A stretch of 61,534 nt of DNA from an uncultured Planctomycetales bacterium (GTDB lineage Bacteria; Planctomycetota; Phycisphaerae; UBA1845; PWPN01), in assembly GCA_964615635.1 (NCBI GenBank), contig CAZTQK010000001.1, positions 22,790 to 84,323 of the forward strand, in the 5' to 3' direction. Shown one piece after another: positions 3,129-43,941 of the stretch (position 1 is its first letter; every line of letters starts with the position of its first letter). A program made the translations under genes and the position numbers. The notes under the pieces were generated by a model, which searched no databases, had not been told where the DNA came from, and saw nothing but the letters and a program-made list of their open reading frames with translations.

Positions 3129-3235
3129 AGAGGTAGGATTAGTCGATAATCTGTGCCTGCATCTTGCCACTTTCGGCTCAAATCCGTCAAGGCGACGGCG
3201 CTTCAGTAAGGCGGCAGTACAGTTCCCGAATTCGG

Positions 3236-9276: not shown

Positions 9277-9282
9277 CCTTGT

Positions 9283-12670: not shown

Positions 12671-12674
12671 TTTT

Positions 12675-15248: not shown

Positions 15249-15251
15249 GAT

Positions 15252-16685
15252 ATGTACCTTAGATCAATGACTTTAAACAATTTCAAGTGCTTCGAGTCAG
15301 GCGTGGATCCGCTGAACTTTGCGATGCCTGATGGTGCTACACTTGGAAGCGGATTAAATATCTTCGTTGGAGAAAACAACACCGGCAAATCTACGATATT
15401 TGAGGCCTTGGATTTCGTAAGAAACGGCCCGCCAAGAGGCAAGTCCATTAGTGACTTGAGAAACAAGGGAGCGTCTTCCGGGAACGGTGTATCGGTAACC
15501 ATTGATTTTGGCGGGGCAGTCACGGATGTCATTGATGCGTATGCGCAGAAGAACAAGCAGGCCGCCATAAAACAGTACGTGAGTGATAACACGTTGCGGG
15601 TCGTTCGTTCATCGGATAATGAGAAAGAACTGCTACTATGGGACGCGAGCGCAGGCGAATTCAAGAATGAATCTGGTATTGATGCTCCGATTAAGAAGTT
15701 GTTCGAACTGGACTTCATTTGGGCCGATACTAATCCGAATGATGAGGCGAAATTCGGAGCTACCACTATCTGCGGGAAGTTGCTCAAGGAGATATCGAAG
15801 AGTTTTGCCGAGACCGACGAATTCAAACATTTCCAGGACGCCTACGGCCATGCTTTTAACGATCCAGATAGCGTTCTCAAAAAGCAACTATGTGAAATTG
15901 AGAGGAGAACACAGGAAATATTTGAAGCTCAATTCGGAAAGGCAAGTATATCGTTTCATTTCGATGAGCTTCAAATCGATAATTTCTTTAAGAACACCAG
16001 AATAAAGGTTGATGATGGACTCGACACATATCTGGAAGAAAAAGGTAGCGGTATGCAACGAAGCGTTGCCCTTGCCTTGATCCAGGTATATGCGGAGAGT
16101 TTGATTAAGCACCCCGATAACCTAAAAGACAAGCCGTTTTTTCTTGTTATTGATGAGCCAGAAACATGTTTACACCCGATAGCGCAACTCAAACTCTTTG
16201 AGGCGTTGGCGGAGATCAGTAAGAGAAGACAGGTATTCGTCGCAACTCACTCTCCGTATATGTTCAAGAACTGCTTGTCGTTGAGTAGTGGGCTCTTTCT
16301 CTGCATCCGGGACGGTAGCAAAATCACCGTTACGGACGTTAGGGCAGGCGGTGTGGGTCTCTTTCCGTGGAGTCCTTCTTGGGGTGAGATTAACTATAAC
16401 GCGTACAACCTACCGACGATCGAGTTTCACAATGAGTTGTACGGGTTCCTGCAGGAACAGGCCCAGCTTATCCGTTGTGATGATTTTGATCAATACCTGC
16501 AAAACTGCAAACATATTACCCAGTTAAGACCGTATTCACGCAACGGTTCGACGGGTAATGTGACATTGTGTACGTACGTTAGGCATCAGATTCATCATCC
16601 TGAAAATACAGCAAATAGTCGTTTTGCAGATACGGAACTCAAGCAGTCGATTGATCTGCTGATAAACGCCATTAGAAATCCATAA
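15252..16685 (+). CDS. ABC/AAA15-21-type ATPase with a C-terminal domain carrying an Rx4H (HEPN-like) motif; PrrC/RloC-like candidate
   Basis: Walker A GENNTGKST, Walker B FFLVIDEPETCLHP, VFVATHSP. The C-terminal ~130 aa contain YVRHQIHHPEN. The gene is nested in the type I R-M locus, 3 nt after hsdMS. Confidence 0.75.
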   Translation: MYLRSMTLNNFKCFESGVDPLNFAMPDGATLGSGLNIFVGENNTGKSTIFEALDFVRNGPPRGKSISDLRNKGASSGNGVSVTIDFGGAVTDVIDAYAQKNKQAAIKQYVSDNTLRVVRSSDNEKELLLWDASAGEFKNESGIDAPIKKLFELDFIWADTNPNDEAKFGATTICGKLLKEISKSFAETDEFKHFQDAYGHAFNDPDSVLKKQLCEIERRTQEIFEAQFGKASISFHFDELQIDNFFKNTRIKVDDGLDTYLEEKGSGMQRSVALALIQVYAESLIKHPDNLKDKPFFLVIDEPETCLHPIAQLKLFEALAEISKRRQVFVATHSPYMFKNCLSLSSGLFLCIRDGSKITVTDVRAGGVGLFPWSPSWGEINYNAYNLPTIEFHNELYGFLQEQAQLIRCDDFDQYLQNCKHITQLRPYSRNGSTGNVTLCTYVRHQIHHPENTANSRFADTELKQSIDLLINAIRNP

Positions 16686-16996: not shown

Positions 16997-18265
16997 ATGA
17001 AGAAGGTAAGAAATAGCAAGACGCTTCGCACTGACACCATCCCGGTAGACAGCTTTTGGAATCTGGGTACAGAGCGAGAACAACGTATGCACAGGATTCA
17101 TGCCTACCCTGCGAAATTTCCGGCGTTTATCACCACTAAGGCGTTGAATTACGCAAAGCGCAGAGGTCGGAAGGTGAACCTTTTGGCGGACATTTTCTGT
17201 GGTTGCGGTACGGTTGCCTATGAGGCCAAAAGAAACAGTATAGACTTCTGGGGTTGCGATATCAACCCAGTGGCGACCATGATTGCTAAAGCGAAGAGCC
17301 AAAGTTATGAAACATGGCGTCTACAGGATTACTTCGAGAAGATCGTTGACGTTTTTGAACATGCCCACTTAGTTTTGCGACCCTACGGGGACGCCATTGA
17401 TAGAATTAAGTATTGGTATGACGCAAATCATTATCGCGAACTTTCGCGACTCCTCGCTGCCATTGAGGAGACAATTCCGGCGCAGAGCAAGTACCATGTG
17501 TTCTTCTTAGTGGCGTTTTCCAATATACTGAAGCCGACTTCTCGTTGGCTGACAAAGTCTATTAAACCGCAGCTTGATCCGAACAAGCAAGCGCAGCGAG
17601 TACTTGCGGCGTTTCAGAATCAGTGTGAATTTGCCATTACTGCGAGTGCCGAGAGCGACGCGAAGGTTGGCTCACATGTGAAGATCGAAACAGCCGATTT
17701 TCTCTCTTCGAGGTTGAGTAGACCTCAGGTAGACATGATAGTGACTAGTCCTCCGTACGTCACCTCCTACGAGTATGCTGATTTGCATCAGCTATCAGCT
17801 CTTTGGCTCAATCCAACAAAGGACTACAGGACCTTTCGATATGGTTCTATCGGGACGCTTCACCACGACTCTGAATTCGAATCCGATGTTGAGGAGCTGA
17901 ACACCAGCGGCAAGACAATTGTCGAGAGTCTACAACGGGTAGATATGGCGAAGTCACGATCTGTAGCGAAATACTTTGTAGACATGCAAGCCGTGGCAAG
18001 ACAGTCTCTTGAGATGTTAGTAGACGGTGGATTAGCGCTATTTGTAATTGGCAATACCCGGTATTCGGGAGTTAAGATAGACAACGCCCATCACCTTGTT
18101 GAATCCATGCTTGAGGCAGGATTTGATGATGTGAGAATAGGAAAACGCAGAATACAGACAAAGATCCTGACGCCTTATCGAGACAAGGCGGGCCGCTTTA
18201 CATCGGACGGCCGCGGGCGTAAGGTCTACGGTGAGGAGTTCGTCGTGATTGGACAAAGATTATGA
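16997..18265 (+). CDS. DNA methyltransferase (N4-C or N6-A; SPPY catalytic motif)
   Basis: AdoMet motif DIFCGCGTVAYEA, then about 200 aa later MIVTSPPYVTSYEY. Confidence 0.85.
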   Translation: MKKVRNSKTLRTDTIPVDSFWNLGTEREQRMHRIHAYPAKFPAFITTKALNYAKRRGRKVNLLADIFCGCGTVAYEAKRNSIDFWGCDINPVATMIAKAKSQSYETWRLQDYFEKIVDVFEHAHLVLRPYGDAIDRIKYWYDANHYRELSRLLAAIEETIPAQSKYHVFFLVAFSNILKPTSRWLTKSIKPQLDPNKQAQRVLAAFQNQCEFAITASAESDAKVGSHVKIETADFLSSRLSRPQVDMIVTSPPYVTSYEYADLHQLSALWLNPTKDYRTFRYGSIGTLHHDSEFESDVEELNTSGKTIVESLQRVDMAKSRSVAKYFVDMQAVARQSLEMLVDGGLALFVIGNTRYSGVKIDNAHHLVESMLEAGFDDVRIGKRRIQTKILTPYRDKAGRFTSDGRGRKVYGEEFVVIGQRL

Positions 18266-20733
18266 ATATCGAAAACGCTGGCAAGAAGATTGATTCGATC
18301 GAGGTATCGATTAGCTATCGTATCATTGAGTTGTTTTCGGCAGGTCTTTATTCAAGTCCCAATAAGGCCTTTGAGGAACTCGTCTGTAATTCGTATGACG
18401 CGTTTGCAGATCAGGTGGCGGTCTATGTGTCCCCAGATCTCGCTGCGGACGATGCCTGTATTTGGGTTTGTGATAATGGGGAAGGCATGGATCGCAAAGA
18501 ACTTAAGGACCTGTGGATGGTTGGAACGTCCTTCAAGCGAGTCGATGCTAAACGTGATAAGCGGCGACTGCAAATCGGACAATTCGGAATTGGCAAGCTT
18601 GCTACGTATGTCCTGGCAAACAGACTCACATATTTGTGCAAGAAAGGCGATAAATATCTGGCCGCAACGATGGACTACCAGCTGATCAAAGACAACGATA
18701 AAGAGAAACTCCTACTTGATGAGCGCGAACTCACTGCAACAGAAGCAGAGCAGTCAATCCAGCAATACCTACTCACTGGAGGGAAGAGCTATGTTCCATT
18801 TGACATGTTCGGCAAGAAAGCTCAGAAGTCATGGACATTTGCTATCATGACCTCCCTCAAGACTAAGGCATCCGAGATAAGAGAAGGCCGACTGAAATGG
18901 GTTTTGCGCACAGCACTTCCTCTGAATCCAGGATTCAGGCTTCACTATAATGGGGTTCTAGTTGAATCCTCCAAGATAAACAAGAAGCTGATGAAATCAT
19001 GGGTTCTGGGAAAGAATGACTCTGTGGCGGAATCGCTCGATTTTGCGAATTGCCGCACGACGCGGAAGGATCACTACATTGATTTCGATGCACTTCAGGG
19101 AGTATATGGCCGAATTGAGTTGTACGAGGATTCGTTGGTCGACTCCACAAAGTCAGCAGGTCTCGGTCGCAGTCACGGGATCTTTCTTCTTGTGCGGGAT
19201 CGTCTGATAAATATCGACGACCCGTTGCTCGGTATGGAGGCGTTCTCACATGGGGCATTCAATCGCACAAGAATGGTGATCCACGCAGATGGACTTGATA
19301 ACAACCTAACCTCCACACGTGAATCCATTAAGGATTCGGTACCCTTTCGGCAGCTGAAGGAATACCTGAAGAAGAAGTTCAATAACGAAGTTCGGAAGCA
19401 CTACTTCGAGGAGGAGATTAAGCGGGATCGACAGCGAAGCATAGATTACCGCATGTCTCAGACGTCGCTTACCTTGTCAAAACGCCCGCTCATCGTTTTT
19501 GCCGAGAAGTTCTATGACAATAAAATTAAGAGTCCACTCTTAATTCAAAAGCCTAACAAGGAGAAAAGAACGGAGCTCCTTTCGAATCTTCGGGATGACT
19601 TGACCACCGAGCAATCACTCATAAAGGATATCGAATGGAGTATATTGGACATCGGGGAACCAATCGCCAAGCTCGACCTAGAAAGTCGCGTGCTCAAGAT
19701 GAATTTGATGCATCCATATATCGCCAACTATAACGATGCCTATAAGAGCACGCTGCCGCTTGAGTTTATGGCGATCACCGAGGTGTTGACAGAAGCTTAT
19801 CTCTATGAACAGGGAATTGACGAAGCGCTGGTGAACTTCATTATGAAGAGACGCGACAATACACTAAGGGAGTTGTCATTATCCGACCGTGAAGGTGCGC
19901 CGGCAGTAGCGCAGATGCTAAAGGACTCGGTAGCAGACAGTACCGGACTTGAGGATGCAGTATATAGGGCATTTCTGTCATTAGGTCTTGAAGTAACTAA
20001 GATCGGCGGGAATGGCAAACCTGACGGCAAAGCAGAGGCGATTCTTGGTTACAGCAGCGCGTCGCAATCAAATAACTTTTCGTTCACATATGACGCTAAA
20101 AGCACTTCAAAAGAGAGGATTCAGGCAGGGACCGCCAAATTGTCGACAATACTGCGTCATAAGAAAGATTACGGGGCTGATTATGCTGTGGTTGTAGCTA
20201 TTGATTTTGAGGGGGCAAATGACGATAAGAGCGCTATTGCGAAAGAGTGCAAACAACAAAGAGTGACGGCCATCCGAGTTGTTGATTTGATTCGGATTCT
20301 CCTACTGTCCGCACCGAAGCAGATCGGCCTTGCAAAACTAAAGGAAATGTTCGACTCATGCTATTCGCCTGCAGAGGTATGCTCTTGGATTGATTGTGTG
20401 GAAGGATGTACAGTTAATCCAGGACCAATTAAAGAAGTACTTACTACTATTTATTCGCTCCAAAAGGATGACACGGAACCGCCAGAGCTTGCCTCCGTTC
20501 GTCAGAAATTGATTACAGATTACAAGACCACACTCTCCAAGTCTGACATTCGATCGATTTTGGAGAGTCTTCAAGTATTTGTCCCTGGCTTCATAAGCAT
20601 CGAAGGCGAAAAAGTCGGAATCAAAGCGAGACCTGATCGGGTGCAAGATGTGATTTCAAGTACCATTAACAACATTCCGAGTAACATTCAGAAGATGTAC
20701 TTGAAGGCGTTCTCTGTGAAATCTAAGAAATGA
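18262..20733 (+). CDS. GHKL (HATPase_c_3 / MORC-like) ATPase fused to a C-terminal PD-(D/E)xK restriction-endonuclease-like domain
   Basis: N-box EELVCNSYDA, G1 VCDNGEGMD, G2 GQFGIGKLA. C-terminal GNGKPDGKAEA...FSFTYDAKSTS is Mrr-like (D...D/E-x-K). The ATG overlaps the methyltransferase stop (ATGA). Confidence 0.8.
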   Translation: MNIENAGKKIDSIEVSISYRIIELFSAGLYSSPNKAFEELVCNSYDAFADQVAVYVSPDLAADDACIWVCDNGEGMDRKELKDLWMVGTSFKRVDAKRDKRRLQIGQFGIGKLATYVLANRLTYLCKKGDKYLAATMDYQLIKDNDKEKLLLDERELTATEAEQSIQQYLLTGGKSYVPFDMFGKKAQKSWTFAIMTSLKTKASEIREGRLKWVLRTALPLNPGFRLHYNGVLVESSKINKKLMKSWVLGKNDSVAESLDFANCRTTRKDHYIDFDALQGVYGRIELYEDSLVDSTKSAGLGRSHGIFLLVRDRLINIDDPLLGMEAFSHGAFNRTRMVIHADGLDNNLTSTRESIKDSVPFRQLKEYLKKKFNNEVRKHYFEEEIKRDRQRSIDYRMSQTSLTLSKRPLIVFAEKFYDNKIKSPLLIQKPNKEKRTELLSNLRDDLTTEQSLIKDIEWSILDIGEPIAKLDLESRVLKMNLMHPYIANYNDAYKSTLPLEFMAITEVLTEAYLYEQGIDEALVNFIMKRRDNTLRELSLSDREGAPAVAQMLKDSVADSTGLEDAVYRAFLSLGLEVTKIGGNGKPDGKAEAILGYSSASQSNNFSFTYDAKSTSKERIQAGTAKLSTILRHKKDYGADYAVVVAIDFEGANDDKSAIAKECKQQRVTAIRVVDLIRILLLSAPKQIGLAKLKEMFDSCYSPAEVCSWIDCVEGCTVNPGPIKEVLTTIYSLQKDDTEPPELASVRQKLITDYKTTLSKSDIRSILESLQVFVPGFISIEGEKVGIKARPDRVQDVISSTINNIPSNIQKMYLKAFSVKSKK

Positions 20734-29444: not shown

Positions 29445-30215
29445 ATGCCCAATGTTCACGGGCCTGATACGCCTAACTGGATCAAGATTCCCCGCGCTCT
29501 ATCGGGTCTCACTTATGCAAGAGTGAGACATCGATATCCGAGGACCGCTTCTTCACGCAGGAAAACCGGCCCGAGGAGCGCATTAAGAGAGACGCTTTCC
29601 GAGCAGGTTCGGAGGATTTCCGTGCATAAGGACGCGGAGTACCATCTTGGCAGAAGCGACCTGGAGAAGCTCATCAACGCCTCGGAGCAAGACCGCGACC
29701 GGGCGCTCATCACGCTTTTCGTTGAGACGGGCATCCGCCGCTTCGAAGCGGCCAAGCTCGTAACCGAGGACCTTGATGTCAAGCAGGGCATTTTGATCGT
29801 GCGCAACGGAAAAGGCCGCAAGCTCCGAATGCTACCGCTATCGAAGCGGCTTCTCGAAAGGCTAAAGACTTTGTGTGCGCCGAATCCGGTGGCTCCACTC
29901 TTCAGAACCGCCAAAGGCGGTTTTTTGAGTACCCGCCAAATCAACAGAATCGTCGCTGCGTCGGGAGCCCGTGCTGGCATTCGCAATCCAAACCCGCGTC
30001 AGAAGAACGTTACGTGCCACCTGTTGCGCCACAGTTTCGCCCGCCACTGGAAAGAAGTCGGCGGCAGCATCGAAACGCTGGCGAAAATCCTGGGTCACGC
30101 ATCGGTAAAAACGACCTGGGACCTTTACGGCACGCAAAGCATCGATGACGTCATACACCATTACCACAACACCATCACCAAAATCACCAATCCGAAGAAA
30201 GGAGAAACAAGATGA
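29445..30215 (+). CDS. Tyrosine recombinase, essentially catalytic domain only (start uncertain; possibly truncated)
   Basis: ETGIRRFEAAKL (Arg I), HLLRHSFARH (H-x-x-R), LGHASVKTTWDLY (His/Tyr). No recognisable N-terminal core-binding domain. Confidence 0.7.
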   Translation: MPNVHGPDTPNWIKIPRALSGLTYARVRHRYPRTASSRRKTGPRSALRETLSEQVRRISVHKDAEYHLGRSDLEKLINASEQDRDRALITLFVETGIRRFEAAKLVTEDLDVKQGILIVRNGKGRKLRMLPLSKRLLERLKTLCAPNPVAPLFRTAKGGFLSTRQINRIVAASGARAGIRNPNPRQKNVTCHLLRHSFARHWKEVGGSIETLAKILGHASVKTTWDLYGTQSIDDVIHHYHNTITKITNPKKGETR

Positions 30216-32810: not shown

Positions 32811-33053
32811 ATGTCAAACGCACCGAAGAATCCGAAATCCAAAGTCCTTGCCGAATCCCTGTCTTCGCTTATCGCCGAGTCGTTCGGAGAGCCGAGCCAG
32901 CAAGACTGGTACCACGAAGTTTGCACTAAACATGACTGGCACACCGTGTACCGCGCATACCGCGAGGTCATGGAGATTCCGGTTTCGCACATCAGGAAGT
33001 CGAGACGCGCCTTATTCGTCTATCTCATCAGAAAATATGAATCGAAAAAGTAA
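32811..33053 (+). CDS. Hypothetical protein
   Basis: 80 aa ORF starting 5 nt after the XRE gene. Its end overlaps the next start. Confidence 0.4.
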   Translation: MSNAPKNPKSKVLAESLSSLIAESFGEPSQQDWYHEVCTKHDWHTVYRAYREVMEIPVSHIRKSRRALFVYLIRKYESKK

Positions 33054-33540
33054 CATCCTCGCACTCGATCCGGGTCTCCGCGAAATCGGCTTTGCACTAC
33101 TTGAGGGGAAGGACCTTGCCGACTATGGCGTGAAATCGCTGTGCCGAAAAGGAAATCACCAAACCCGGCCGAATCTCGCGAGCGAGGTCATGTACCGGCT
33201 GATCAAGGACACATGTCCCGACGCAGTCGTACTGGAGAGGAAGGAAATTCCTGACACGCCTGACGGATTCCGGCTCATGATCCTGATTAAGTGTGCCATT
33301 GAGCTTGGACGGAAACTAAAGGTCCCTGTTGCGGAAATTGACTCCAATGAAATCCGGATTGAAGTTGCCGGAAAACCGGTCGCCTCAATGCAGGAAATGG
33401 CAAACACAATCGCATCCCGTTTTCCTGAGCTTCAGAAATGCGCCTCCGTAAAGGATCGGGGCCGTCGCCGCTACTGGAGCCATTTATTCACTTCAGTTGC
33501 CGCCGCCCTCATTTACCAAAAGAACAATGCCCAAATCTAA
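33037..33540 (+). CDS. RuvC-like / RNase H-fold resolvase-like protein
   Basis: The internal ATG at 33037 of track ORF 32848-33540 gives MNRKSNILALDPGLREIGFALLEG (a RuvC-type N-terminal Asp strand) and VVLERKE. The upstream part of the track ORF is Arg/Ser-rich and overlaps the previous gene. Confidence 0.5.
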   Translation: MNRKSNILALDPGLREIGFALLEGKDLADYGVKSLCRKGNHQTRPNLASEVMYRLIKDTCPDAVVLERKEIPDTPDGFRLMILIKCAIELGRKLKVPVAEIDSNEIRIEVAGKPVASMQEMANTIASRFPELQKCASVKDRGRRRYWSHLFTSVAAALIYQKNNAQI

Positions 33541-34432
33541 ACCTGAAAACCTCAAACCGATCCAACTGCAGGAGCGGGATAAGCTCCTTGTCGAAGCACT
33601 CGACGACTACGGCCTCCTCACCACCGAACAAATCCGGTATCTCCTGTTTCCGTCTATGAGCCGGGCCCGAAAGCGCCTTCATCTACTCTGGCAACACGGA
33701 TTGGTTCACAAAATCGAAAGGCCGACCCGACTAGGCGAAGGGACAAAGTCGTACTTATTCCGCCCGAATGCGAAAGGCAGGCGGTTGACCGGTGCCAAAA
33801 CGATCCGCAACGGAAACGGCCACAAGGTGCCGGTCTTGTCTCCGCTCTATGCCGAGCACCAGATCGCGGTCAACCGGTTCAGAATTTGCCTCACACTCGC
33901 GCTCGGGAAGACCCCGGAAATCACACTTGAGACCTGGAAAAAGGACGGTCAGCTTCGGCTCAAAGTCAGCCGCCATAAGGCTGGCGGAAGCGAGTCAGCT
34001 ACCATAGTCCCGGACGCCTACTTTTCACTGAAATCAGAAGGCTCGAAGTACGGCTATTTCCTCGAAATCGACCGCGGGACGGCCACTATATCGAGGCTGA
34101 AGAAAAAGCTGTTGGGGTACGCCACCATTTTCAGGTCACCCCGCTCATTTGACCCGCTGATCGCACCAGGATTCCGCGTCTTAATTGTCACATCCTCGGC
34201 CCGGCGGCGGCAAAGCCTTCTTGAGCTCATTCAGAGCATGGGAACGTCGCTTAGGCGTTCGGATGTCTTTCTGGTCACGAATTCCGCGCAATTCAGCTAC
34301 GAGGCTCCGGAAGCGCTTTTCGGCCCGGTCTGGAACACCATCCTAGCGGACGGGCGGATGCAGAACAGTCTTACGCTCCATCCGGTTTTTTCAAGCTCCC
34401 GACAGCGCCAGGAAAAACCACCAGTGCGTTGA
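33527..34432 (+). CDS. Replication-relaxation family protein (paralog 1)
   Basis: LQERDKLLVEALDDYGLLTTEQIRYLLFPSMSRARKRLHLLWQHGLV, IVPDAYFSL, YFLEIDRGT. ATG at 33527 overlaps the previous gene's end. Confidence 0.7.
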   Translation: MPKSKPENLKPIQLQERDKLLVEALDDYGLLTTEQIRYLLFPSMSRARKRLHLLWQHGLVHKIERPTRLGEGTKSYLFRPNAKGRRLTGAKTIRNGNGHKVPVLSPLYAEHQIAVNRFRICLTLALGKTPEITLETWKKDGQLRLKVSRHKAGGSESATIVPDAYFSLKSEGSKYGYFLEIDRGTATISRLKKKLLGYATIFRSPRSFDPLIAPGFRVLIVTSSARRRQSLLELIQSMGTSLRRSDVFLVTNSAQFSYEAPEALFGPVWNTILADGRMQNSLTLHPVFSSSRQRQEKPPVR

Positions 34433-34790: not shown

Positions 34791-36512
34791 CTAACTGAAA
34801 TAGATACTTTCCGCGCGCGAGATCAGCAACGCCTGCCGCTTGGCGACTTCCGTTGGCGACCAGGAGTCGACGCTTTCCAATTCCCTCGTGATCCTGAACG
34901 CAGTACTCCGACCCCGAAAATACGCTTCTTTCTTCTTTGCGAATTCGTAATTCCGAGCCGATGAGTTCTTTCGCCCGCTCAGCAGCACCAAGTTGCCTAC
35001 CGCATTAGTCAGCTCAGCACGTGACTTATCATCGAAAGACTTCTTCCACTCGCTTTCTTCCTGCGGTGTCTGCGGAAGAACATGTTCCACGGTGATCGTG
35101 CCGGAGTACCCCCCGAAATTCTCCATTTCCCATTGATCCAAATCTAGCCTGAGCAGGAAATAGCGAGCTAACTTTCCGCCGAATATGTAGTAGAATTGAG
35201 GGTCAGAGAGTACCCGAATCATGATTTCCCTCAGTTTCTCGGGTTCCTTCCAACCTTTAGTTTGGCTTACTACATCCTCCGGCGACGCTGTGCCCGCAAT
35301 GATCTTGATAACTTGGTTCAGACTGCCAATGCGCTCGGTGAGAGATAACCCCACGGCCCATTCGACAAAGACTTTCTTTTCCAATTCGATCACAAACGCG
35401 CTCAGCTTCGCGTCATCTTTGAATTTCTGGTGGAATGCTATGGTCGGTGGAATCCAATCATCGAACGGAATAAACCGGGTAAGCATTTGTACGAGCGCAC
35501 GATATTCATTTTTCTCTGCTGCGTCTAAATGCACGATCGGATTCAGGATTTTCTCACTGTGAATGTCTGCAACTTCGGTGACATATCCTATGAATGCGCC
35601 TCCCCGATCCAATAGCTTCGGCCTGAAGATCAAGGACTGATATTCATCGTAAATTCCAAGTCGCGATTTATCCTTTACTTGGATCGTACGAATGAAGATC
35701 ACTACTTTTTCCAGCGCTTCGCGCCCCAAATCATCTTCAATAGCCTGCCAGTTTCTCGCTGCCCTGATTCGCTCTCCGAGGTCGGTTATCGCCCCCAGGT
35801 TTTCGCTCTTGAGTAGGTCAGCAATGCTCAGGGAAATGCCCCGAGTGTTCAGCACAGTGAACATGCGGAAAGCCGAAATGAACTCAGAGGTTTGGATGTA
35901 CACGACGTAGACGTCGCCCATAAGGAAAGTGATGAACCGACCTAGAATGGATGGGTCAATCAGCAACTCGCCATACCGCCTTGTAAAAACGCTGACAGCT
36001 TCGTACAAATGGTAGAGACTATCTTCCTGATCGGTGAACTTGATTCGCCCGCCTTCGAATTCCTTTTTGAAGTCGGAACTACCTCCACGCTTGTATAGGT
36101 ACTTATTGAACGTGTCGCGCAAAGCTTCCCACGGGGTAATTCGTACTTGACGTGGGATAGATTTATAAGGATTCGCCTCTTGAAATAACGATTCTTCCAA
36201 TGTCTTCCGCAGTAGCTCCTCGGCAGTGAGGTCCCGGACGACTGCCAAAAACAGAGCCAAAGCAGTTAACCGCTGCTGGCCGTCCACAACCTCAAACGTA
36301 TCCTTCTTACCAGCCGACTCCTGGAGAATTATGGACCCGAGAAAGTACTGCTTGGACGACCCGCTGAAGGCTTCATAAATGTCATCAAATAGTTGCTCAA
36401 AATTCTCAGTTGACCAGCTGAATGGACGCTGATACAGGGGTATTTCGAACAGGAATTCGGTGCTAAACAGCTTGCCCAAGATGCATTCTTTAGCTTCAAT
36501 TGTCTCGCCCAT
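34791..36512 (-). CDS. GmrSD-family type IV (modification-dependent) restriction enzyme: DUF262 + DUF1524
   Basis: FEIPLYQRPFSWSTENFEQLFDDI (DUF262 ParB-like motif). C-terminal TVEHVLPQ...GNLVLLSGRKNSSARNYEF (His-Me/DUF1524). Confidence 0.85.
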   Translation of the reverse strand: MGETIEAKECILGKLFSTEFLFEIPLYQRPFSWSTENFEQLFDDIYEAFSGSSKQYFLGSIILQESAGKKDTFEVVDGQQRLTALALFLAVVRDLTAEELLRKTLEESLFQEANPYKSIPRQVRITPWEALRDTFNKYLYKRGGSSDFKKEFEGGRIKFTDQEDSLYHLYEAVSVFTRRYGELLIDPSILGRFITFLMGDVYVVYIQTSEFISAFRMFTVLNTRGISLSIADLLKSENLGAITDLGERIRAARNWQAIEDDLGREALEKVVIFIRTIQVKDKSRLGIYDEYQSLIFRPKLLDRGGAFIGYVTEVADIHSEKILNPIVHLDAAEKNEYRALVQMLTRFIPFDDWIPPTIAFHQKFKDDAKLSAFVIELEKKVFVEWAVGLSLTERIGSLNQVIKIIAGTASPEDVVSQTKGWKEPEKLREIMIRVLSDPQFYYIFGGKLARYFLLRLDLDQWEMENFGGYSGTITVEHVLPQTPQEESEWKKSFDDKSRAELTNAVGNLVLLSGRKNSSARNYEFAKKKEAYFRGRSTAFRITRELESVDSWSPTEVAKRQALLISRAESIYFS

Positions 36513-36603: not shown

Positions 36604-36732
36604 CAATACCGCGTAAAGCGGTATTGAATCGCCTTCAGTACCTTTTCGTAATCCTGTTTGAACTTTGGAGTTACCGGTTGGGGGGTGTAAAGTCCGGGAA
36701 AACAGCCGATATACAGGGAGTATACAGCCGAT
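36604..36732. promoter_or_regulatory. Inverted- and direct-repeat cluster in the divergent intergenic region (candidate operator or oriT)
   Basis: Perfect 9 bp inverted repeat CAATACCGC-GTAAA-GCGGTATTG (36604-36626). Direct repeats ACAGCCGAT at 36702 and 36724 flank TATAC/GTATA. Confidence 0.3.
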
Positions 36733-36758
36733 TAGACAGGCTGGTTTTTGGGGAATTC

Positions 36759-38384
36759 ATGGATACAGTCGGCATCATACTGATTCTAGTCATTGGCGGG
36801 GGAATCGCCCTTTGGTACCAGACAAAAGTTTCTGAACGGAAACGAAGGGAAGCCCGCCGAGCCGAAGAATTCGAGCGGGAGCGTCTGGCTGAATGCGAGG
36901 AGGTAGTACGCTACTTCGCCAACTCATACGGCTACCTGGCCCGGGCCGTCATCAGCCGTGACGAACTTGCAGAACAAATCGACGCCGGGGTCACCGCCGA
37001 AGAGCTTCGGGATTTCATTTCAAGCCGGATGATCAATGTAGACGGGCTAGAGCTCGGCGATCATGGAAGCGGATTGCCGGTGATCCTTCCGGACGAGTAC
37101 CGGGATAAGCACCTCTACGTGGTCGGAAAGTCCGGCTACGGCAAAACAAATTTCCTCCGGTATTTGATCCTCCAGGACCTGTCACGGGGAAATGGCATCG
37201 GCTTGCTGGCTCCTGAAATGGAGATGCTCACCGAGGAGATCCTCCCGTTCATCCCCGAAGACCGGGTCGAGGATGTCATTTATTTCAACCCCAAAGACCT
37301 CGAGTTTCCGGTTGTCCTGAACCCCTTGTATTTGGAAGAGGGAGAGGACATTGACCTGCACGTGGACGAGACCTTCACCGTCCTGCAGCGGGTAGTGGGG
37401 GACGGCGGCCCGAGGATGGACGAGATTCTTCGACACAGCCTCTACGCCCTGACCGAGCGGCAGGGATCGACCCTCATGGACTTCGAGCCGCTTCTTGACC
37501 GCCATGACGACACCTTGCGGAAGGAAATCGTCCGAACCACCGAAGACGAGCAGACAAAGAGGTTTTTCGAGCATACCTACCCGTTGCTGCCGAAAGACGC
37601 ACACTTCCCAGTGATCAACCGGATTTCCCGGATTGTCCGTGGCAAATACGTCCGGAATTGCCTTTGTCCGCCAAGACGGTCATCGATGAATCCGGAAGAG
37701 GTCTCAAGGCGGTTGCTTAATATTCGACGCGCGATGGACGAGGGGAAGATTCTGCTCTTTAACCTGTCGGACGGTATCTTGGGAACGGTCGCGAGCCAGC
37801 TTATCGGCCAGTTAATCGTGGCGAAATATCAGACTGCTACCATGAGCCGCGCCGACACGTCGAAAGGTGGGCGGCGGCCGCACTTCCTGTACCTGGACGA
37901 ATTCCAGAATTTCTGCGGCATTGCCCAGCAGTCGTACGAGAAGATTCTCTCACGAGCACGCAAGTACAAACTTGGATTGATTCTTGCCCATCAGCAGACG
38001 CGGCAGGTACCGCTGGAATTGTATCGCGAAATTCTGGGTAACGTTTCGACGATCGTGAGCTTCCAGGTTGCCCAGGCCGATGCCGGCAGGCTCGGACCGG
38101 AGTTCATCAACCAATATGACTTCGAAGTGGAATCTTTGCCGAGAGAGGAATTGCTCCAACTCGGCGTCGGGGAAGCCTATTGCAGGATCGGCAAAAACAC
38201 GTTCCCGATGTGGGTGCCGAAGGTCGACGCAGAACCGGATTTCGACCGGGCCGAGGAAGTAATTGAATTCTCGCGCAAGGCTTATGGCATTCCCCGCACG
38301 CCTAAGGCAGCGGATGAGCGGTCCGCAAGGCAAACCGCAGACGATGATCCTCTCGCTGACCTCGATCCGGACGAGGTGTTCTAA
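36759..38384 (+). CDS. TraD/VirD4-like coupling-protein-type ATPase (T4CP-like) with an N-terminal TM anchor
   Basis: ATG at 36759 gives MDTVGIILILVIGGGIALWY (TM). Walker A VVGKSGYGKTNFL, Walker B FLYLDEFQNF, ILAHQQTRQV. Confidence 0.7.
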   Translation: MDTVGIILILVIGGGIALWYQTKVSERKRREARRAEEFERERLAECEEVVRYFANSYGYLARAVISRDELAEQIDAGVTAEELRDFISSRMINVDGLELGDHGSGLPVILPDEYRDKHLYVVGKSGYGKTNFLRYLILQDLSRGNGIGLLAPEMEMLTEEILPFIPEDRVEDVIYFNPKDLEFPVVLNPLYLEEGEDIDLHVDETFTVLQRVVGDGGPRMDEILRHSLYALTERQGSTLMDFEPLLDRHDDTLRKEIVRTTEDEQTKRFFEHTYPLLPKDAHFPVINRISRIVRGKYVRNCLCPPRRSSMNPEEVSRRLLNIRRAMDEGKILLFNLSDGILGTVASQLIGQLIVAKYQTATMSRADTSKGGRRPHFLYLDEFQNFCGIAQQSYEKILSRARKYKLGLILAHQQTRQVPLELYREILGNVSTIVSFQVAQADAGRLGPEFINQYDFEVESLPREELLQLGVGEAYCRIGKNTFPMWVPKVDAEPDFDRAEEVIEFSRKAYGIPRTPKAADERSARQTADDDPLADLDPDEVF

Positions 38385-39269
38385 ATGCCGGAGAAACGAT
38401 TCAAGTTCACGGAACGCGACAGCCTGCTTTTGGTGGATTTGTACAAGCACCGCTTCCTAACTATTACTCAACTACAGCGACTCCACTTCCCTTCGATGCA
38501 AACAGCCTACCGCCGCATGCGGCTCCTGAAATCAGCCCGGTACGTGTCATCCTTTACGGTCGCGAACATAGACGAGTCTATATTCACGGTTTCAACGGCG
38601 GGCTTGCAGGCCGTTGCGGAAGCGCTTGGCGTTGACCGCGAGCAGTTGAAGTGGAGCGAGACGAAGGCCAAGCCACGCGACTACTACTTCATGCGGCATT
38701 TTCTCGCTATCAACGACTTTCGGATCACGCTCAAACTAGCTTGTGAAGCGTCCGGCATCCGTCTCTTGGGTTTCATCCCTGACTATTACGGTGAGAAGAC
38801 TGATAAGGGAGCGGTTACCAAGTATATCAGGGACGTCATTTGCGATGTCGCTCGCGACCGCCAGGAGGTCTCTCATACGCCGGACGGGGTATTTGCCCTC
38901 GAACGGGATGGCAAGGCCGCGCTCTTCTTTCTTGAAATCGACCGGGGGACAGAAGTTGTGGGTGACTCGGACAAAGGTGTACTGAAGAGCATCCGTTTCT
39001 ACACGAATTATCTGCTTGATGGCAAATACCAGCGGTATACAAAGGACTTCGGTGTTCAAGAATTCAAAGGATTCCGGAGCCTTTATGTGACAACGGCCCC
39101 CGCGCGCCTTTCGAACATCAGACAAGCCGTGGCGAAACTGGACATTCCACAAAAGGCCCAGCGGTTTCACTGGATAACGACTGAACATGAGCTTACGACA
39201 CAGAGCATTTTCACTCCTATTTGGCTGTCGCTCGACCCCACGGACGAGAAGCGATACCAAATCGGGTAA
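38385..39269 (+). CDS. Replication-relaxation family protein (paralog 2)
   Basis: FTERDSLLLVDLYKHRFLTITQLQRLHFPSMQTAYRRMRLLKSARYV, HTPDGVFAL, FFLEIDRGTE. It starts immediately after the T4CP-like stop. Confidence 0.7.
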   Translation: MPEKRFKFTERDSLLLVDLYKHRFLTITQLQRLHFPSMQTAYRRMRLLKSARYVSSFTVANIDESIFTVSTAGLQAVAEALGVDREQLKWSETKAKPRDYYFMRHFLAINDFRITLKLACEASGIRLLGFIPDYYGEKTDKGAVTKYIRDVICDVARDRQEVSHTPDGVFALERDGKAALFFLEIDRGTEVVGDSDKGVLKSIRFYTNYLLDGKYQRYTKDFGVQEFKGFRSLYVTTAPARLSNIRQAVAKLDIPQKAQRFHWITTEHELTTQSIFTPIWLSLDPTDEKRYQIG

Positions 39270-39814: not shown

Positions 39815-39981
39815 CTGGAGCGCACTCTTGCATAGCACGACATGAAAAGTTGTAGCGGTCATTGCTTGACTGCTCCTGTGACGTATGGGACAATGTCATT
39901 TGGGAGCTATAGAAGCCTGAAACAAAATTGATCTTGTAAGGAGGAATAAAGAATGTACTGTTTCTTCAACGGGGTGATGCG

Positions 39982-40113
39982 ATGAGTGAAAACCTCTGGA
40001 GTCTAATCGGGGGGTGGAAAGGGGTCACGGGTTCATTGCTCTTTGCAGTAGTCATTTTGGCTATATTTCTCTTGACCCACGCCTCACTTACCAGACTTGG
40101 ACGGCAGCGCTGA
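39982..40113 (+). CDS. Candidate 43-aa single-TM peptide preceded by a coupled 10-codon mini-ORF (39953-39985)
   Basis: TAAGGAGGA-N7-ATG at 39953. ATGA overlap into MSENLWSLIGGWKGVTGSLLFAVVILAIFLLTHASLTRLGRQR. Candidate promoter TTGACT-17-GACAAT at 39866-39894. Both ORFs are below the ORF-track size cutoff. Confidence 0.25.
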   Translation: MSENLWSLIGGWKGVTGSLLFAVVILAIFLLTHASLTRLGRQR

Positions 40114-40145
40114 GGCCAAGGGAAACTTATGGGAGCGTCTTGAAG

Positions 40146-40868
40146 TTAGGCGCTCTCTCTTTTCGTTCTGGTGGATTTAACAGAATCTCGTATGTTGCTG
40201 ATCGTAGAAACGCAGTGAATCGGTATCCTTTTCTTTAAGAACAGGTCATTTTTATCTTCCTCACGGTCTACGACGGCAACAGCATTTGATACATATGCTC
40301 CAAATTTCTCGATTTTGTCAATTGCCTTCATGAGCTGCAACCCGGTAGTCACGACATCAGTCACAAGTATTACGGCATCACCTTCCTTCAAAGGTTCGCC
40401 CTTCACTGATGCAGCGTCTAGTTTACGGCGAGGGCGAACGACCGAAGCATTCACGCCCAACATGCTAGACACTAGGTCTTTGGTCGTCAAACATCCAACT
40501 GGCCCGGAGTCCTTTTCAATAAAGCAAACCTTCCAATTCACCTTGTCTTTTTGTTCAGCCATGATGGTTTTGATTTTGTCACAAATCTGAGTTGCAGTGC
40601 GCTTTGAACTTTCAAAGTCCCTCAGAGTATTGTCAGTATCGTAGAAATCCTTGCGCCGACCAACACCTGCAGTCATATCCCAATCACTGGCACAGTATCC
40701 GGCCAGTAGAAAATTGCCGGTCGTCTCAACGGCAGGAGCGGCGACAAGAATTGTGCGTTTAACTACTGCCCAATGCACAAACAAGACAACAGCGAAGACT
40801 ATCGCCGGAATGACTATTGAAAGCAAAAACAAGCTGCCATTGACCATGTTGGCGATTTCCTGAATCAT
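40146..40868 (-). CDS. Membrane-anchored phosphoribosyltransferase, orotate-PRTase-like C-terminal half
   Basis: ATG at 40868 lies 6 nt after AAGGAG (the track start at 40874 is a TTG). N-terminal hydrophobic helix LFLLSIVIPAIVFAVVLFVHWAVV. PRPP loop GDAVILVTDVVTTGLQ. AVAVVDREE. Confidence 0.75.
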   Translation of the reverse strand: MIQEIANMVNGSLFLLSIVIPAIVFAVVLFVHWAVVKRTILVAAPAVETTGNFLLAGYCASDWDMTAGVGRRKDFYDTDNTLRDFESSKRTATQICDKIKTIMAEQKDKVNWKVCFIEKDSGPVGCLTTKDLVSSMLGVNASVVRPRRKLDAASVKGEPLKEGDAVILVTDVVTTGLQLMKAIDKIEKFGAYVSNAVAVVDREEDKNDLFLKKRIPIHCVSTISNIRDSVKSTRTKRESA

Positions 40869-40886
40869 CTCCAACTCCTTTCTACG

Positions 40887-41333
40887 CTACTTAGCCGATA
40901 TAGCCAAGCCAGCCGCTATTAGCAGCACGTTATAACCGATTATCCAACTCGCCAAAATTGGAGAGACAATGCCCAAAGTCTTCCAGAAATCTGATTGGAA
41001 CGGATATTGTCTCGAGAATATTTTATGCAAAAGGTACACGATCACATAACCTAGTAAGAACAGTGCCGGGAACTTAAACAAATTCGCCTTACTAGTCAAG
41101 ACAAGTTCAGAGATTTTGGACGCTGGGTTTAGCAAAGCAGTCGCTACCGTGGCAAATGACATATGGCAAAGATCACTTCCTATTCTTGTAAACTCTGCCC
41201 AAGAACTCATAACCAAGTCTTTCCTGTCACCCTTACGCACCAACACCATCACAACGTAGTAGAATGATCTAGCTAATACAGCGATGAGAAGAAGGATCAA
41301 CTGAAACCAAATTATCTCTTCGACTGATCTCAT
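40887..41333 (-). CDS. Small 4-TM membrane protein
   Basis: ATG at 41333 overlaps the upstream stop (TGATG). Four hydrophobic segments. No motif recognised. Confidence 0.55.
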   Translation of the reverse strand: MRSVEEIIWFQLILLLIAVLARSFYYVVMVLVRKGDRKDLVMSSWAEFTRIGSDLCHMSFATVATALLNPASKISELVLTSKANLFKFPALFLLGYVIVYLLHKIFSRQYPFQSDFWKTLGIVSPILASWIIGYNVLLIAAGLAISAK

Positions 41334-41755
41334 CAATGCACCGGTAGCTTCTTGTTGAGTTCGTCCATCGAATCAAGATAATGGCATATCATCTGTTCGA
41401 GATTCGCGTACGCGCCAGTCGCGTCACTCGTCTCTACGTCTCTGGAAAGTTTGTCCAGACCATTCCCGATAGCCAGCATAACGCTGTCATGAGTTTCACG
41501 GGTTTCCTTTTTGAATGGAATGTCGCCGGTGAGGTTGAAGAAAAAATCTTCTATAAATGCTACAAGCGTATAAATCAGCAGGCGCTGCCAAGTCGCTGCT
41601 TGCTTGTATTGCAGTTCGGATAGGACAAAATGTAACTCACGCAGCGGCCTGGACATTGTCACGTCCCCCTGCAGTGAATTTGCGGTCTCGCGAAGCTTTT
41701 GAACCAGTATGGCTTCAATTTCTGGAGTCATCTGCCGCACGCTCAACTTCTTCAT
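41333..41755 (-). CDS. Hypothetical, predicted all-helical protein (start uncertain: 41755, 41731 or up to 41815)
   Basis: The ORF overlaps the 3' end of pyrF by 17-41+ nt, depending on the start chosen. No motif recognised. Confidence 0.45.
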   Translation of the reverse strand: MKKLSVRQMTPEIEAILVQKLRETANSLQGDVTMSRPLRELHFVLSELQYKQAATWQRLLIYTLVAFIEDFFFNLTGDIPFKKETRETHDSVMLAIGNGLDKLSRDVETSDATGAYANLEQMICHYLDSMDELNKKLPVH

Positions 41756-42461
41756 AAACTCTTTGGGCCGCCGCAGTTGGATCCCCGGACTTGAGAATCG
41801 GGCGTCCAATAACAATGAGGCTTGCCCCAGCTTCTATTGCTTGTCTCGGCGTCGTAATGCGCTTCTGGTCATCTGTTGAGTCCACTGACCATTCCGGTCG
41901 GATGCCCGGATTGATTATGTAGAAATTGCTCCCTATCTCTCGTCTCACAGAAGCGGTTTCCTCAGCGGAACAGACAATTCCATCTAGGCCGGCCTGTTTC
42001 GCTAACTCAGCGAGACGAAGCGCATAGGCTTTGCTGTCTTGTTCAATACCAAGTTCGCTTCTCAAATTCTCGGTATTGAGGCTGGTCAGCACCGTAACTC
42101 CTATGACCAGAGGCCGCTTTACACTAGCTGTCCTTGACAGCTCATGTGCCTCATTGACAGTGGCTTTCATCATCGCCAAACCACCACTCGTATGGACATT
42201 AAAAATACTGGCACCGAGAGACACAATGGATCGAGTTGCCCCGGCAACGGTGTTCGGAATATCATGAAACTTAAGGTCCAAAAAGACTTTGCCCCCCACT
42301 TCCACTATTGTCTCGACGACCCTTGGCCCAACTGCGCAGAAGAGCTGCAATCCGACTTTGAAATAACCGACCGATTCCCGGGTGGCCTTGACCAATCGCT
42401 CGGCCTCCTGCAGAGTGGCCACGTCAAGCGCCAGACATACTTTGTCTTTTACGTTACCCAT
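41715..42461 (-). CDS. pyrF: Orotidine 5'-phosphate decarboxylase
   Basis: VCLALDV, FLDLKFHDIPNT (D-x-K-x-x-D), VLTS, NPGIRP, DDQKR, VIGRPI. These are all the canonical type-1 PyrF motifs. Confidence 0.9.
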   Translation of the reverse strand: MGNVKDKVCLALDVATLQEAERLVKATRESVGYFKVGLQLFCAVGPRVVETIVEVGGKVFLDLKFHDIPNTVAGATRSIVSLGASIFNVHTSGGLAMMKATVNEAHELSRTASVKRPLVIGVTVLTSLNTENLRSELGIEQDSKAYALRLAELAKQAGLDGIVCSAEETASVRREIGSNFYIINPGIRPEWSVDSTDDQKRITTPRQAIEAGASLIVIGRPILKSGDPTAAAQRVYEEVERAADDSRN

Positions 42462-42472
42462 ACAAGACCAGC

Positions 42473-42769
42473 TTATTTTTTGTTCTTTCTTCTCTCACGG
42501 ACTATTATGTCTGCAGAGTCTTTAAGGCTGAGATTGAGCACGAGTTCCTTCAGTCGATCAGAAGCCCACCGCGTATCAGATGGGTCGTAAAGGTCTTTCA
42601 TCCCATCTTTGGCCACAGGTTGGATTATTAGCAATCGCTTGTAGTCGCGCATTATCCTCACCGATTTCCCAAAGATTTCAGCTGCTTTCTCAATGTTTAT
42701 AAGATGCTCATTCATTTGCTCATCTCTCGCCTTACGTAACATTTCCGTTACTTTCGCAAACCGTTGCAA
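42473..42769 (-). CDS. Small HTH protein (MerR/excisionase-like); the start may be the internal ATG at 42715
   Basis: MNEHLINIEKAAEIFGKSVRIMRDYKRL resembles excisionase-type HTH domains. It lies between the integrase and pyrF. Confidence 0.45.
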   Translation of the reverse strand: MQRFAKVTEMLRKARDEQMNEHLINIEKAAEIFGKSVRIMRDYKRLLIIQPVAKDGMKDLYDPSDTRWASDRLKELVLNLSLKDSADIIVRERRKNKK

Positions 42770-42790
42770 ATCGCCGACATTCGTCGTTAA

Positions 42791-42800
42791 TTGACGTCAA
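42791..42800. promoter_or_regulatory. 10 bp perfect palindrome TTGACGTCAA between the integrase stop and the HTH gene start
   Basis: Read directly from the sequence. Flanking AA/TT extend the symmetry imperfectly. Confidence 0.25.
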
Positions 42801-42835
42801 ATTGTAGCACGAAACGTTACTTGTCAATAAAAAAA

Positions 42836-43771
42836 TTAGATTTTTATTGCATTACTCGGGCTGAACCTCGAATACGTCTCCACCATATCCTGGTTGCTCA
42901 TGTGCAGGTAGTTTTGCGTCACTACCAGCGACGTGTGCCCGAGAATCTTCTGCAGAATCACCGGGGAGCCGCCTTGTCGGATGAAAAACGTAGCCGCGCT
43001 GTGGCGAATCAGGTGGGGATAGAGCTCAATGCCGACATTATTCCCGATATCCTGGATGATCTTGTGGCAGTGGCGCGAAGTTATAGGCTTGCCGCTTCTC
43101 TGGCAGAAAGCGAGGTTCCCCGGCGTGCCGTTCCGCCACCGGTTCAGGTAGAAATGGACGGTCTTAATGGTCTTCGCGCCCATCGGGACTTGACGCTCCT
43201 TGCGGCCCTTGCCATAAACCTTGACCAGCCCGGCGCGCAGGTCAATATCGTCGATCTTGAGCGTTATCAATTCCTCTTTGCGGATCATGGAATCCCAGAA
43301 CAACATCACCATCGTGAGATTCCGGTATCCTTCGTAGGTTGACTTGTTGAGGGACTGCAAAACACGCTGGATTTCCTCCGGCGACACTACCGGCTTAATC
43401 CGTTTGGATACCTTGACCAGTTTCAGCTTCTTCGTGGGGTTTGGTTTTTCCCAGATGCCTTCTTCTTCCAGGTAATTGAAGAACCGGCGGTAGACGCGTA
43501 TCCGGCCGTTGACGGTTTCGTCAGAGACGTTGCCGATAAGCGACAGCAGGTAGTCCTGGATATTCTGCCGCGTAATGTCCTCGATGTCGATGCCTTTTTC
43601 TTCGAGATAGCGGACCAGATAGCCGAGCCGCTCCGCATAGACGTTGAGAGTGCGTGGTGCCAGATTTCTTATCTTGCATCCGAAGACAAACGCATCGACG
43701 TATGTCTTCCAGTTTGATCCCACCTTCAGTTCATCGACCAAAAGGTAGAGTCGCTTGAGATGATCTTCCAT
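42836..43771 (-). CDS. Tyrosine recombinase / integrase (XerC/D-like, full length)
   Basis: N-terminal SAM-like domain (YVDAFVFGCKIRNLAPRTLNVYAERL). MLFWDSMIRKEEL (Arg), HLIRHSAATFF, LGHTSLVVTQNYLH. Confidence 0.9.
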   Translation of the reverse strand: MEDHLKRLYLLVDELKVGSNWKTYVDAFVFGCKIRNLAPRTLNVYAERLGYLVRYLEEKGIDIEDITRQNIQDYLLSLIGNVSDETVNGRIRVYRRFFNYLEEEGIWEKPNPTKKLKLVKVSKRIKPVVSPEEIQRVLQSLNKSTYEGYRNLTMVMLFWDSMIRKEELITLKIDDIDLRAGLVKVYGKGRKERQVPMGAKTIKTVHFYLNRWRNGTPGNLAFCQRSGKPITSRHCHKIIQDIGNNVGIELYPHLIRHSAATFFIRQGGSPVILQKILGHTSLVVTQNYLHMSNQDMVETYSRFSPSNAIKI

Positions 43772-43867: not shown

Positions 43868-43941
43868 TACCCCCGGCAGGACTCGAACCTGCTACCCTCT
43901 GCTTAGAAGGCAGATGCTCTATCCGGATGAGCTACGGGGGC
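43868..43941 (-). tRNA. tRNA-Arg (anticodon TCT)
   Basis: The reverse complement folds as GCCCCCG-TA-GCTC-ATCCGGATA-GAGC-A-TCTGC-CTTCTAA-GCAGA-GGGTA-GCAGG-TTCGAGT-CCTGC-CGGGGGT-A. That gives 74 nt, a G1-U72 pair, discriminator A and no encoded CCA. Confidence 0.9.

Follow-up and report, generated by a model that had tools for sequence, protein, structure and literature searches.

A recurrent, horizontally mobile gene cassette with a membrane-anchored relative of orotate phosphoribosyltransferase and an OMP decarboxylase in a planctomycete genomic island

A 61,534-nucleotide stretch of DNA from an uncultured Planctomycetales bacterium (contig CAZTQK010000001.1, positions 22,790 to 84,323; this whole stretch is referred to as the window) carries a genomic island, and a cassette of five tightly packed minus-strand genes (42715..40146) lies in this island between a tyrosine integrase and a convergent gene block. 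The genes encode, in the order of transcription, a small helix-turn-helix (HTH) protein, the orotidine 5'-monophosphate (OMP) decarboxylase PyrF, a soluble helical protein, a small transmembrane (TM) protein, and a membrane-anchored phosphoribosyltransferase (PRTase) of the orotate phosphoribosyltransferase (OPRT) lineage. An initial annotation, made from the sequence, had singled out these five co-directional genes beside the integrase as a possible undescribed system, and all of them are present as it had them. In this study, the helical, TM and PRTase genes were found together in unrelated lineages, mostly in the company of an OMP decarboxylase gene. The reading that we favour, tentatively and at less than even confidence, is that this horizontally mobile cassette regulates itself and brings the two final reactions of uridine 5'-monophosphate (UMP) synthesis together at the inner membrane face.

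The PRTase (240 aa; 40868..40146, minus strand) is preceded by the ribosome-binding site AAGGAG. Both this site and the N-terminal membrane helix proposed at the outset were confirmed; the helix is strongly hydrophobic (Kyte-Doolittle value 3.1) and appears at residues 11-50 of the AlphaFold2 (AF2) model, where it is followed by an OPRT fold (predicted local distance difference test score, pLDDT, 79.9). The protein carries the motifs VILVTDVVTTG and VVDREE. It matched the Pfam profile Pribosyltran only below threshold (21.9 bits, with a gathering threshold, GA, of 26.3). In a Foldseek search with the model, nearly all of the top 20 matches were OPRTs (E ~4e-9, TM-score up to 0.75). A profile of the PRTase family matched OPRTs in the PDB at 4e-21 to 7e-18 (best 3.8e-21) along the whole soluble domain, and its best matches were the UMP synthase (UMPS) of Leishmania, the human OPRT domain and the OPRT of A. 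pernix (3qw4, 2wns and 2yzk, over positions 52-217). According to the predicted model and the profile, the OPRT fold includes the N-terminal hood. The initial annotation had described an OPRT-like C-terminal half joined to a divergent base-binding half; the likeness in fact extends to the whole soluble domain, yet several catalytic residues are gone.

For a comparison of catalytic residues, the PRTase family was aligned with true PyrE proteins. The catalytic residues of OPRT, in the numbering of S. typhimurium, are K26, K73, the loop residues R99, K100, K103 and H105, D124-D125, and R156. The PRTase family keeps the Y-x-D hood motif, the equivalents of R99, D125 and R156, and the TTG phosphate loop. 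At the site of K73, in the pyrophosphate loop, it has a nearly invariant E-K-D-S-G insert (EKDSGPVG), of which E118, K119 and D120 are nearly invariant and lie beside the site for phosphoribosyl pyrophosphate (PRPP). As F-I-E-K-D-S-G-P-V-G, the insert is the signature of the family, which is rare. The strong conservation of this new charged insert suggests a remodelled rather than a dead active site. Judged from the alignments, the PRTase is derived from OPRT and is not a member of PyrE.

PyrF (248 aa; 42461..41715, minus strand) matched the Pfam profile PF00215 OMPdecase at 2.3e-59 with 201 bits (GA 27), and it passed the cut-offs of the NCBIfam equivalog PRK00230 (266.5 bits versus 193) and of TIGR01740 (187 bits versus 92.3). 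The motifs FLDLKFHDIPNT, YFKVG, DLKFHD, DDQKR and VIGRPI are present, and with them the catalytic array and the phosphate-gripper residues. By these sequence features, PyrF is the fully canonical OMP decarboxylase that had been claimed.

The helical gene runs on the minus strand from ATG 41755 (or 41731) to 41333 and encodes a product of 132-140 aa. It is translationally coupled to pyrF: as had been noted, its start overlaps the 3' end of pyrF, and a start at ATG 41731 (132 aa) gives a 17-nt overlap, as in the related locus L030. The AF2 model of the protein is a confident five-helix bundle (pLDDT 87.7). Foldseek found no significant neighbour of the model in the PDB or BFVD, the best match being the P1 domain of CheA (E 0.25), and no PDB sequence match was obtained. 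Across the related loci the protein measures 119-155 aa, with R39, D70, N74, G77, D78, G97 and Y126 invariant, and its gene always directly precedes the TM gene. Assignment to the all-alpha NTP-pyrophosphatases (MazG-like) or to the histidine phosphotransfer (HPt) proteins was considered and dropped because support was lacking.

The TM gene (148 aa; 41333..40887, minus strand) starts within the stop of the helical gene (TGATG at 41333). This overlap had been described correctly, and the number of helices, first given as four, needs some loosening. The Kyte-Doolittle profile shows three strong hydrophobic segments and a weaker fourth (residues ~52-70, with a value of ~1.0 by hand calculation); since the weaker segment is kept across the family, the protein is called a 3-4-TM protein. 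Members of the family (133-163 aa) show weak but collinear conservation, with an (R/K)xGxD(L/F) motif ahead of the second TM segment. Neither the helical nor the TM protein matched a family in Pfam, NCBIfam, PADLOC or PHROGs.

Word-indexed homology searches, run with the PRTase and with alignments of its family, yielded just 2-13 proteins. When the PRTase was used as the query against 5.8 billion proteins, the yield was the protein itself, on 18 contigs that all carry this island, and a single relative at 37% identity. The family came into view with an exhaustive profile search, in which 1.84 billion representatives gave 17 clusters below 1e-30 and 146 below 1e-10. The signature F-x-E-K/R-x-x-G-P-x-G was surveyed in 142 representatives of at least 190 aa, drawn from 152 sequences (the 150 profile matches listed, plus P0001 and P0002); it was present in 73 of them, and 61 also had an N-terminal TM helix. 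About 20 loci were gathered with a degenerate DNA pattern for FIEKDSGP[VI]G and from the contigs of the proteins returned by the homology searches, and near-identical contigs were collapsed to count independent lineages. Several pattern matches (L018, L021 and L037-L040) were chance and were discarded. A genome search with a narrow family alignment gave no related loci, a relaxed signature pattern applied to viral contigs gave no further true member, and a tblastn search of plasmid and phage collections with the PRTase gave no match. Among 2.9 million viral contigs, only one (L029) carried the PRTase.

The view that these genes belong together was borne out by the loci. The order helical, TM, TM-PRTase is kept in every locus with enough upstream sequence and recurs in some 13 independent lineages, among them Anaerolineales, Patescibacteria and a Bacteroidota-like contig. 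Start/stop overlaps join the pyrF, helical and TM genes in nearly all loci. Ten of the 13 informative lineages carry a gene of the OMPdecase family linked to the trio. The upstream gene encodes a canonical PyrF in three cases, the window, L030 and L032, with NCBIfam scores of 266-278 bits, and a divergent, archaeal-like OMPdecase in L013 (Patescibacteria), L015, L016, L019/L027 and L033. The divergent enzyme scores 44-55 bits with Pfam (GA 27), has the OMP decarboxylase of M. thermautotrophicus as its best PDB relative, and carries DHQKGGTD without an equivalent of R203. In L034/L035 the divergent OMPdecase gene has moved downstream of the PRTase gene, giving a permuted gene order; the L034 PRTase resembles that of the window in its conserved KICFIEKDSGP block. 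In a variant of the cassette (L022 9188-12539, L026 902-4308, and L028), the gene for a helical protein comes first, that for a soluble PRTase-like protein without a TM helix second, and that for a 247-aa protein with a C-terminal TM helix third; a type-2 pyrF and a genuine pyrE lie immediately downstream of these genes. With three non-orthologous OMPdecases and a permuted order, a functional link is hard to avoid, and the recurrence of the gene set elsewhere indicates that its occurrence in the window is not a chance juxtaposition.

The cassette also forms a low-GC islet in three genomes, which indicates that it moves as a unit. In the window its genes have a GC content of 0.42-0.51 versus 0.66-0.71 in the flanking host chromosome, as expected from the AT-rich character reported initially; the islet of L016 spans 4 kb (0.37-0.44 versus 0.60), and that of L030 has 0.38 versus 0.49. 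No integrase lies alongside the cassettes of L016, L030 and L032. That the window simply holds the housekeeping pyrF/pyrE pair of the host, or a chance assortment of island cargo, is hardly credible. A fully canonical PyrF is what a housekeeping pair would contain. The genes, however, lie below the host genome's GC content of 0.67-0.70 and are carried by an island integrated at a tRNA gene, the PRTase falls short of every PyrE model, and in L022/L026 a true PyrE co-exists with the PRTase-like gene; the same gene set in unrelated lineages and contexts already refutes chance. As a separate observation, an imperfect 22-nt direct repeat (17/22) was seen in L016 exactly at both GC boundaries of the islet (2902-2923 and 6886-6907); it may be an insertion scar, or chance.

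On the favoured reading, the small HTH protein would control one promoter that drives the pyrF, helical, TM and PRTase genes. The OPRT-derived PRTase would be held on the membrane by its N-terminal helix, with the catalytic domain in the cytoplasm, and would form OMP from PRPP and orotate or a closely related 6-carboxy-pyrimidine. OMP, in turn, would be irreversibly decarboxylated to UMP by the co-translated PyrF. The five-helix-bundle protein may be an adaptor that brings PyrF and the membrane pair into one complex, a role that fits the translational coupling of its gene to pyrF in nearly all loci, and the 3-4-TM protein may deliver or channel the base. The pay-off would be the scavenging of orotate or a private supply of UMP. 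The exchangeable OMPdecases argue that the decarboxylation of OMP is itself needed, and so that OMP is the product of the PRTase. Such an arrangement has precedents: in the upp-uraA and xpt-pbuX operons the gene for a base permease accompanies that for the cognate PRTase, OPRT and OMP decarboxylase form complexes or fusions (as in UMPS), and a plasmid of L. lactis bears the orotate transporter OroP.

A number of observations weigh against this reading. The PRTase is below every curated PyrE cut-off (best, TIGR00336 with 41.2 bits versus 106.8). Of the canonical OPRT residues, K26 is replaced by T in the PRTase family, the flexible catalytic loop has four residues fewer and contains neither K103 nor H105, and D124, the first acid of the PRPP motif, is T or variable. 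The TM protein is small, shows poor conservation (14-20% identity) and resembles no family of transporters. A free-living host would be expected to own PyrE and PyrF already, and would then need only the transporter. The OMPdecase is missing from L012/L023 (Anaerolineales), from L036 and from the viral contig L029, which has a lone PRTase. One clade of degenerate PRTases (P0019 and P0028/L036) reads FLEKNPGSGG, has lost the equivalents of R145 and R202, and is also without OMPdecase; in L036 (458-2520), homologous HTH, helical and TM genes are kept beside the degenerate PRTase, which hints at a function of the trio that is independent of catalysis. Between the window and L030, the HTH protein (69%) and PyrF (64%) are far more alike than the helical (32%), TM (37%) and PRTase (38%) proteins, and this uneven divergence reflects either fast evolution of the trio or an exchange of modules. 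Finally, the neighbours of the cassette are often defence, toxin-antitoxin or mobile-element genes.

The residue losses can also be read as a sign that the PRTase-like domain is a non-catalytic sensor for PRPP, OMP, UMP or orotate, as in PyrR/PurR, which gates or regulates the membrane partners while PyrF sets the level of the ligand. K26, K103, H105 and D124 are lost while the phosphate loop and the R156 equivalent are kept, the clade without OMPdecase is degenerate still further, and PRTase folds have been re-used as regulators, with PyrR and PurR among the PDB matches. We nevertheless consider such a sensor unlikely: the EKDSGP insert, with its nearly invariant charged residues, looks remodelled and not decayed, the protein has neither a DNA- or RNA-binding domain nor an output domain, and consecutive catalysis explains the linkage to OMPdecase more simply.

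The genomic neighbours bear on another explanation, namely that the cassette is a new anti-phage system (abortive infection or conflict), with the helical, TM and TM-PRTase trio as its sensor/effector core. Infection would lead to membrane damage, to misdirection of PRPP or pyrimidine nucleotides, or to a nucleotide analogue, and the OMPdecase would process or clear the product of the PRTase. We regard this as only slightly less probable than the favoured reading. In the window, the island also holds AbiE, a type I restriction-modification (R-M) system with an OLD-like ATPase, a type II R-M system and GmrSD. In L012 (1450-5423) and L023 (2102-6125), the trio stands back-to-back with a cluster that encodes a DndB-like (DGQHR) protein, a 440-450-aa protein and a D12-class methyltransferase (MTase), and a PIN/AbrB pair and a nucleotidyltransferase are encoded near the L012 trio. 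The neighbours in L014 include a pair that we take, by eye, to be DUF5131/TcmP-like; the PRTase of the viral contig L029 lies beside an MTase, and L031 has HTH_3, VWA and ORF6N genes alongside. A defence role would also agree with the rare and patchy distribution in low-GC islets, with the fast divergence of the trio relative to PyrF and the HTH protein, with the persistence of the trio without OMPdecase in some lineages (in L036 even with a degenerate PRTase), with the small TM peptides described below, and with the effector role of PRTases in ShosTA, PsyrTA, type III retrons, Ophion and DS-32.

Several points speak against defence. PADLOC gave nothing beyond a chance-level match to ShosT (E 0.022), and the PRTase had no match in the phage and plasmid collections and was seen in a single viral contig among those searched. 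The argument is one of guilt by association from a dozen loci, it offers no coherent reason for a fully canonical PyrF, and the variant in L022/L026 sits within a housekeeping pyrF-pyrE operon. The claim that no described system has this composition held up: no Pfam, NCBIfam, PADLOC or PHROGs model, and no literature found, describes the gene set, and a literature search for a defence system with a PRTase and an OMP decarboxylase found none. It is possible, though less likely than not, that the trio with its recruited OMPdecase, HTH protein and micro-peptide represents an unrecognised class of conflict or defence systems that works through membrane-localised pyrimidine-nucleotide chemistry. 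Such a system could, for example, make, withhold or sense a pyrimidine nucleotide and so bring about abortive infection at the level of the membrane, and it would stand apart from the PRTases of ShosTA, retrons and Ophion. Depletion of PRPP through orotate was also considered as a defence mechanism and was judged implausible, because the flux would be limited by the supply of orotate.

The cassette is probably larger than first described. All of the listed genes belong to it, and a convergent small TM-peptide gene joins them in a subset of loci. In the window this probable sixth component (39982-40113, plus strand) encodes a 43-aa peptide with a single TM helix, and an SD-like (Shine-Dalgarno) GGGGTGA lies ahead of its ATG. 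A promoter-like site (39866-39894) precedes it, and a terminator-like hairpin (40131-40157) overlaps the stop of the PRTase gene. Of 18 loci, 7 have an SD-preceded open reading frame (ORF) for a TM peptide of 37-54 aa in convergent orientation to the PRTase gene, a number to be compared with the ~1.8 that shuffled sequences predict and with the 2 seen on the same strand. Equivalent peptides are encoded in L011, L015, L016, L020, L031 and L034, several of them with [KRH][PA]SL after the TM helix. If the cassette is a defence system, the peptide may be a type-I-toxin-like executioner or an addiction element. Like the peptides of type I toxin-antitoxin systems, it has fewer than 60 residues, a single TM helix and a basic C-terminus, and its gene has promoter and terminator features of its own and a 3' end that converges on or overlaps the neighbouring transcript. 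Unlike them, it has no homology to known toxin families, and it is confined to 7 of the 18 loci. A role as a subunit of a membrane complex is just as likely.

The first gene of the cassette (42715..42473, minus strand) encodes a small HTH protein of the excisionase/MerR type, a putative regulator of the cassette. Its ORF is open up to TTG 42769 (42769..42473); since the L030 homologue begins at the position that corresponds to ATG 42715, the product is likely to have 80 aa. The 69% identity of the window and L030 proteins extends over these 80 aa, and the L036 cassette likewise opens with a homologous gene. In the window the HTH gene adjoins the integrase, whereas in L030 and L036 a gene of the same family heads a cassette that no integrase adjoins; the neighbours of the L030 cassette are mnmG, rsmG and parAB. 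The HTH proteins of L032 and L034 are MerR/HTH_17-like, with weak Pfam matches in the case of L034, and the window protein has no match in Pfam, PADLOC, NCBIfam or PHROGs. A putative promoter/operator of the operon lies at 42790..42835 (minus strand), with TTGACA-15 nt-TGcTACAAT followed by the palindrome TTGACGTCAA. This site was read from the sequence by eye; the consensus promoter scan missed it because of the 15-nt spacer. A block TTTTTATTGACAA(G/A)T(A/G)ACG...ACGTCAATTA is kept upstream of the HTH gene in both the window and L030. The gene had been labelled HTH/excisionase-like, and the HTH part of this label stands; a plain island excisionase agrees poorly with a conserved first gene and a conserved promoter region. 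Given the closely similar copy in a locus without an adjacent integrase, the HTH gene is assigned, from sequence comparison, to the cassette as its own putative regulator and is probably not simply the excisionase of the island.

Textbooks present OPRT and OMP decarboxylase as soluble enzymes of housekeeping metabolism. In the cassette, a derivative of OPRT is membrane-anchored, appears remodelled, and shares its operon with an interchangeable OMPdecase and with two proteins that have no recognised fold family, in a mobile islet that crosses phyla, including Chloroflexota, Patescibacteria and a Bacteroidota-like contig. Like PyrE and UMPS, the cassette PRTase has the type I PRTase fold, finds its best matches among OPRTs by profile and by structure, and is coupled to an OMPdecase, as in UMPS. 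It differs from them in its membrane anchor, the five-residue EKDSG insert, the shorter loop without K103 and H105, and the change of K26 to T; moreover, the cassette has two extra obligatory partners, the helical and TM proteins, that are unknown in UMP synthesis. The uraA-upp and pbuX-xpt salvage operons, together with OroP, resemble the cassette in that genes for a membrane protein and a PRTase share one operon, and they provide a logic of base capture and a precedent for mobile orotate use. The resemblance is one of logic only: the TM protein of the cassette (~145 aa, 3-4 TM) is not NCS2/NAT or another recognised transporter (no Pfam, NCBIfam or PHROGs match), the PRTase is itself membrane-anchored, and an OMPdecase and a helical protein are included. 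If the cassette serves salvage, it would represent the first module for the specific capture of orotate in which a membrane component is coupled to phosphoribosylation, and it would give bacteria with reduced genomes, or mobile elements, a means of securing UMP.

ShosTA, PsyrTA, type III retrons, Ophion (OpnC) and DS-32 resemble the cassette in that a small accessory operon, often located in a defence island, encodes a protein of the PRTase fold. The toxicity of ShosT requires the binding of PRPP. The PADLOC match of the cassette PRTase to ShosT (12.6 bits) covers the PRPP loop only, and the operon has no DprA-like gene. The partners of type III retrons, Ophion and DS-32, namely a reverse transcriptase with a non-coding RNA, a radical SAM protein with a PHP protein, and NADAR, are not found in the cassette. 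Its PRTase is of the OPRT lineage. Those systems are without OMPdecase or membrane partners. If the cassette is a defence system, enzymes of pyrimidine synthesis would join the immune repertoire.

The island that holds the cassette has its integration site at a tRNA-Arg(tct) gene (43941..43868, minus strand; ARAGORN), where a GC step from ~0.5 to ~0.7 marks the island boundary. A search for attachment sites found no second copy of the tRNA-Arg 3' end within the window, which indicates that the island runs past the left edge. The tyrosine integrase (43771..42836, minus strand; Pfam Phage_integrase 2.9e-33) lies between the tRNA gene and the cassette and is not part of the latter. The defence modules that had been reported to share the island were confirmed: AbiEi/AbiEii (8692-9981); a type I R-M system composed of HsdR and an HsdM-HsdS fusion, followed by an OLD/AriA/GajA-like ATPase (10166-16685); a type II MTase partnered by a large restriction endonuclease-like protein (16997-20733); and GmrSD/HEC-06 (34791-36512). 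A second integrase (29445-30215), two Replic_Relax genes (32848-34432) and a gene for a TraG/VirD4-like coupling protein (36624-39269) suggest an integrative mobilisable element of composite or tandem structure. Towards the left end of the window, three families of direct repeats (1-104 versus 3482-3585, 1213-1248 versus 4649-4684, and 2925-3224 versus 6339-6638) have a common spacing of ~3.4 kb and identities of 83-93%, which suggests a diverged tandem duplication of a ~3.4-kb segment.

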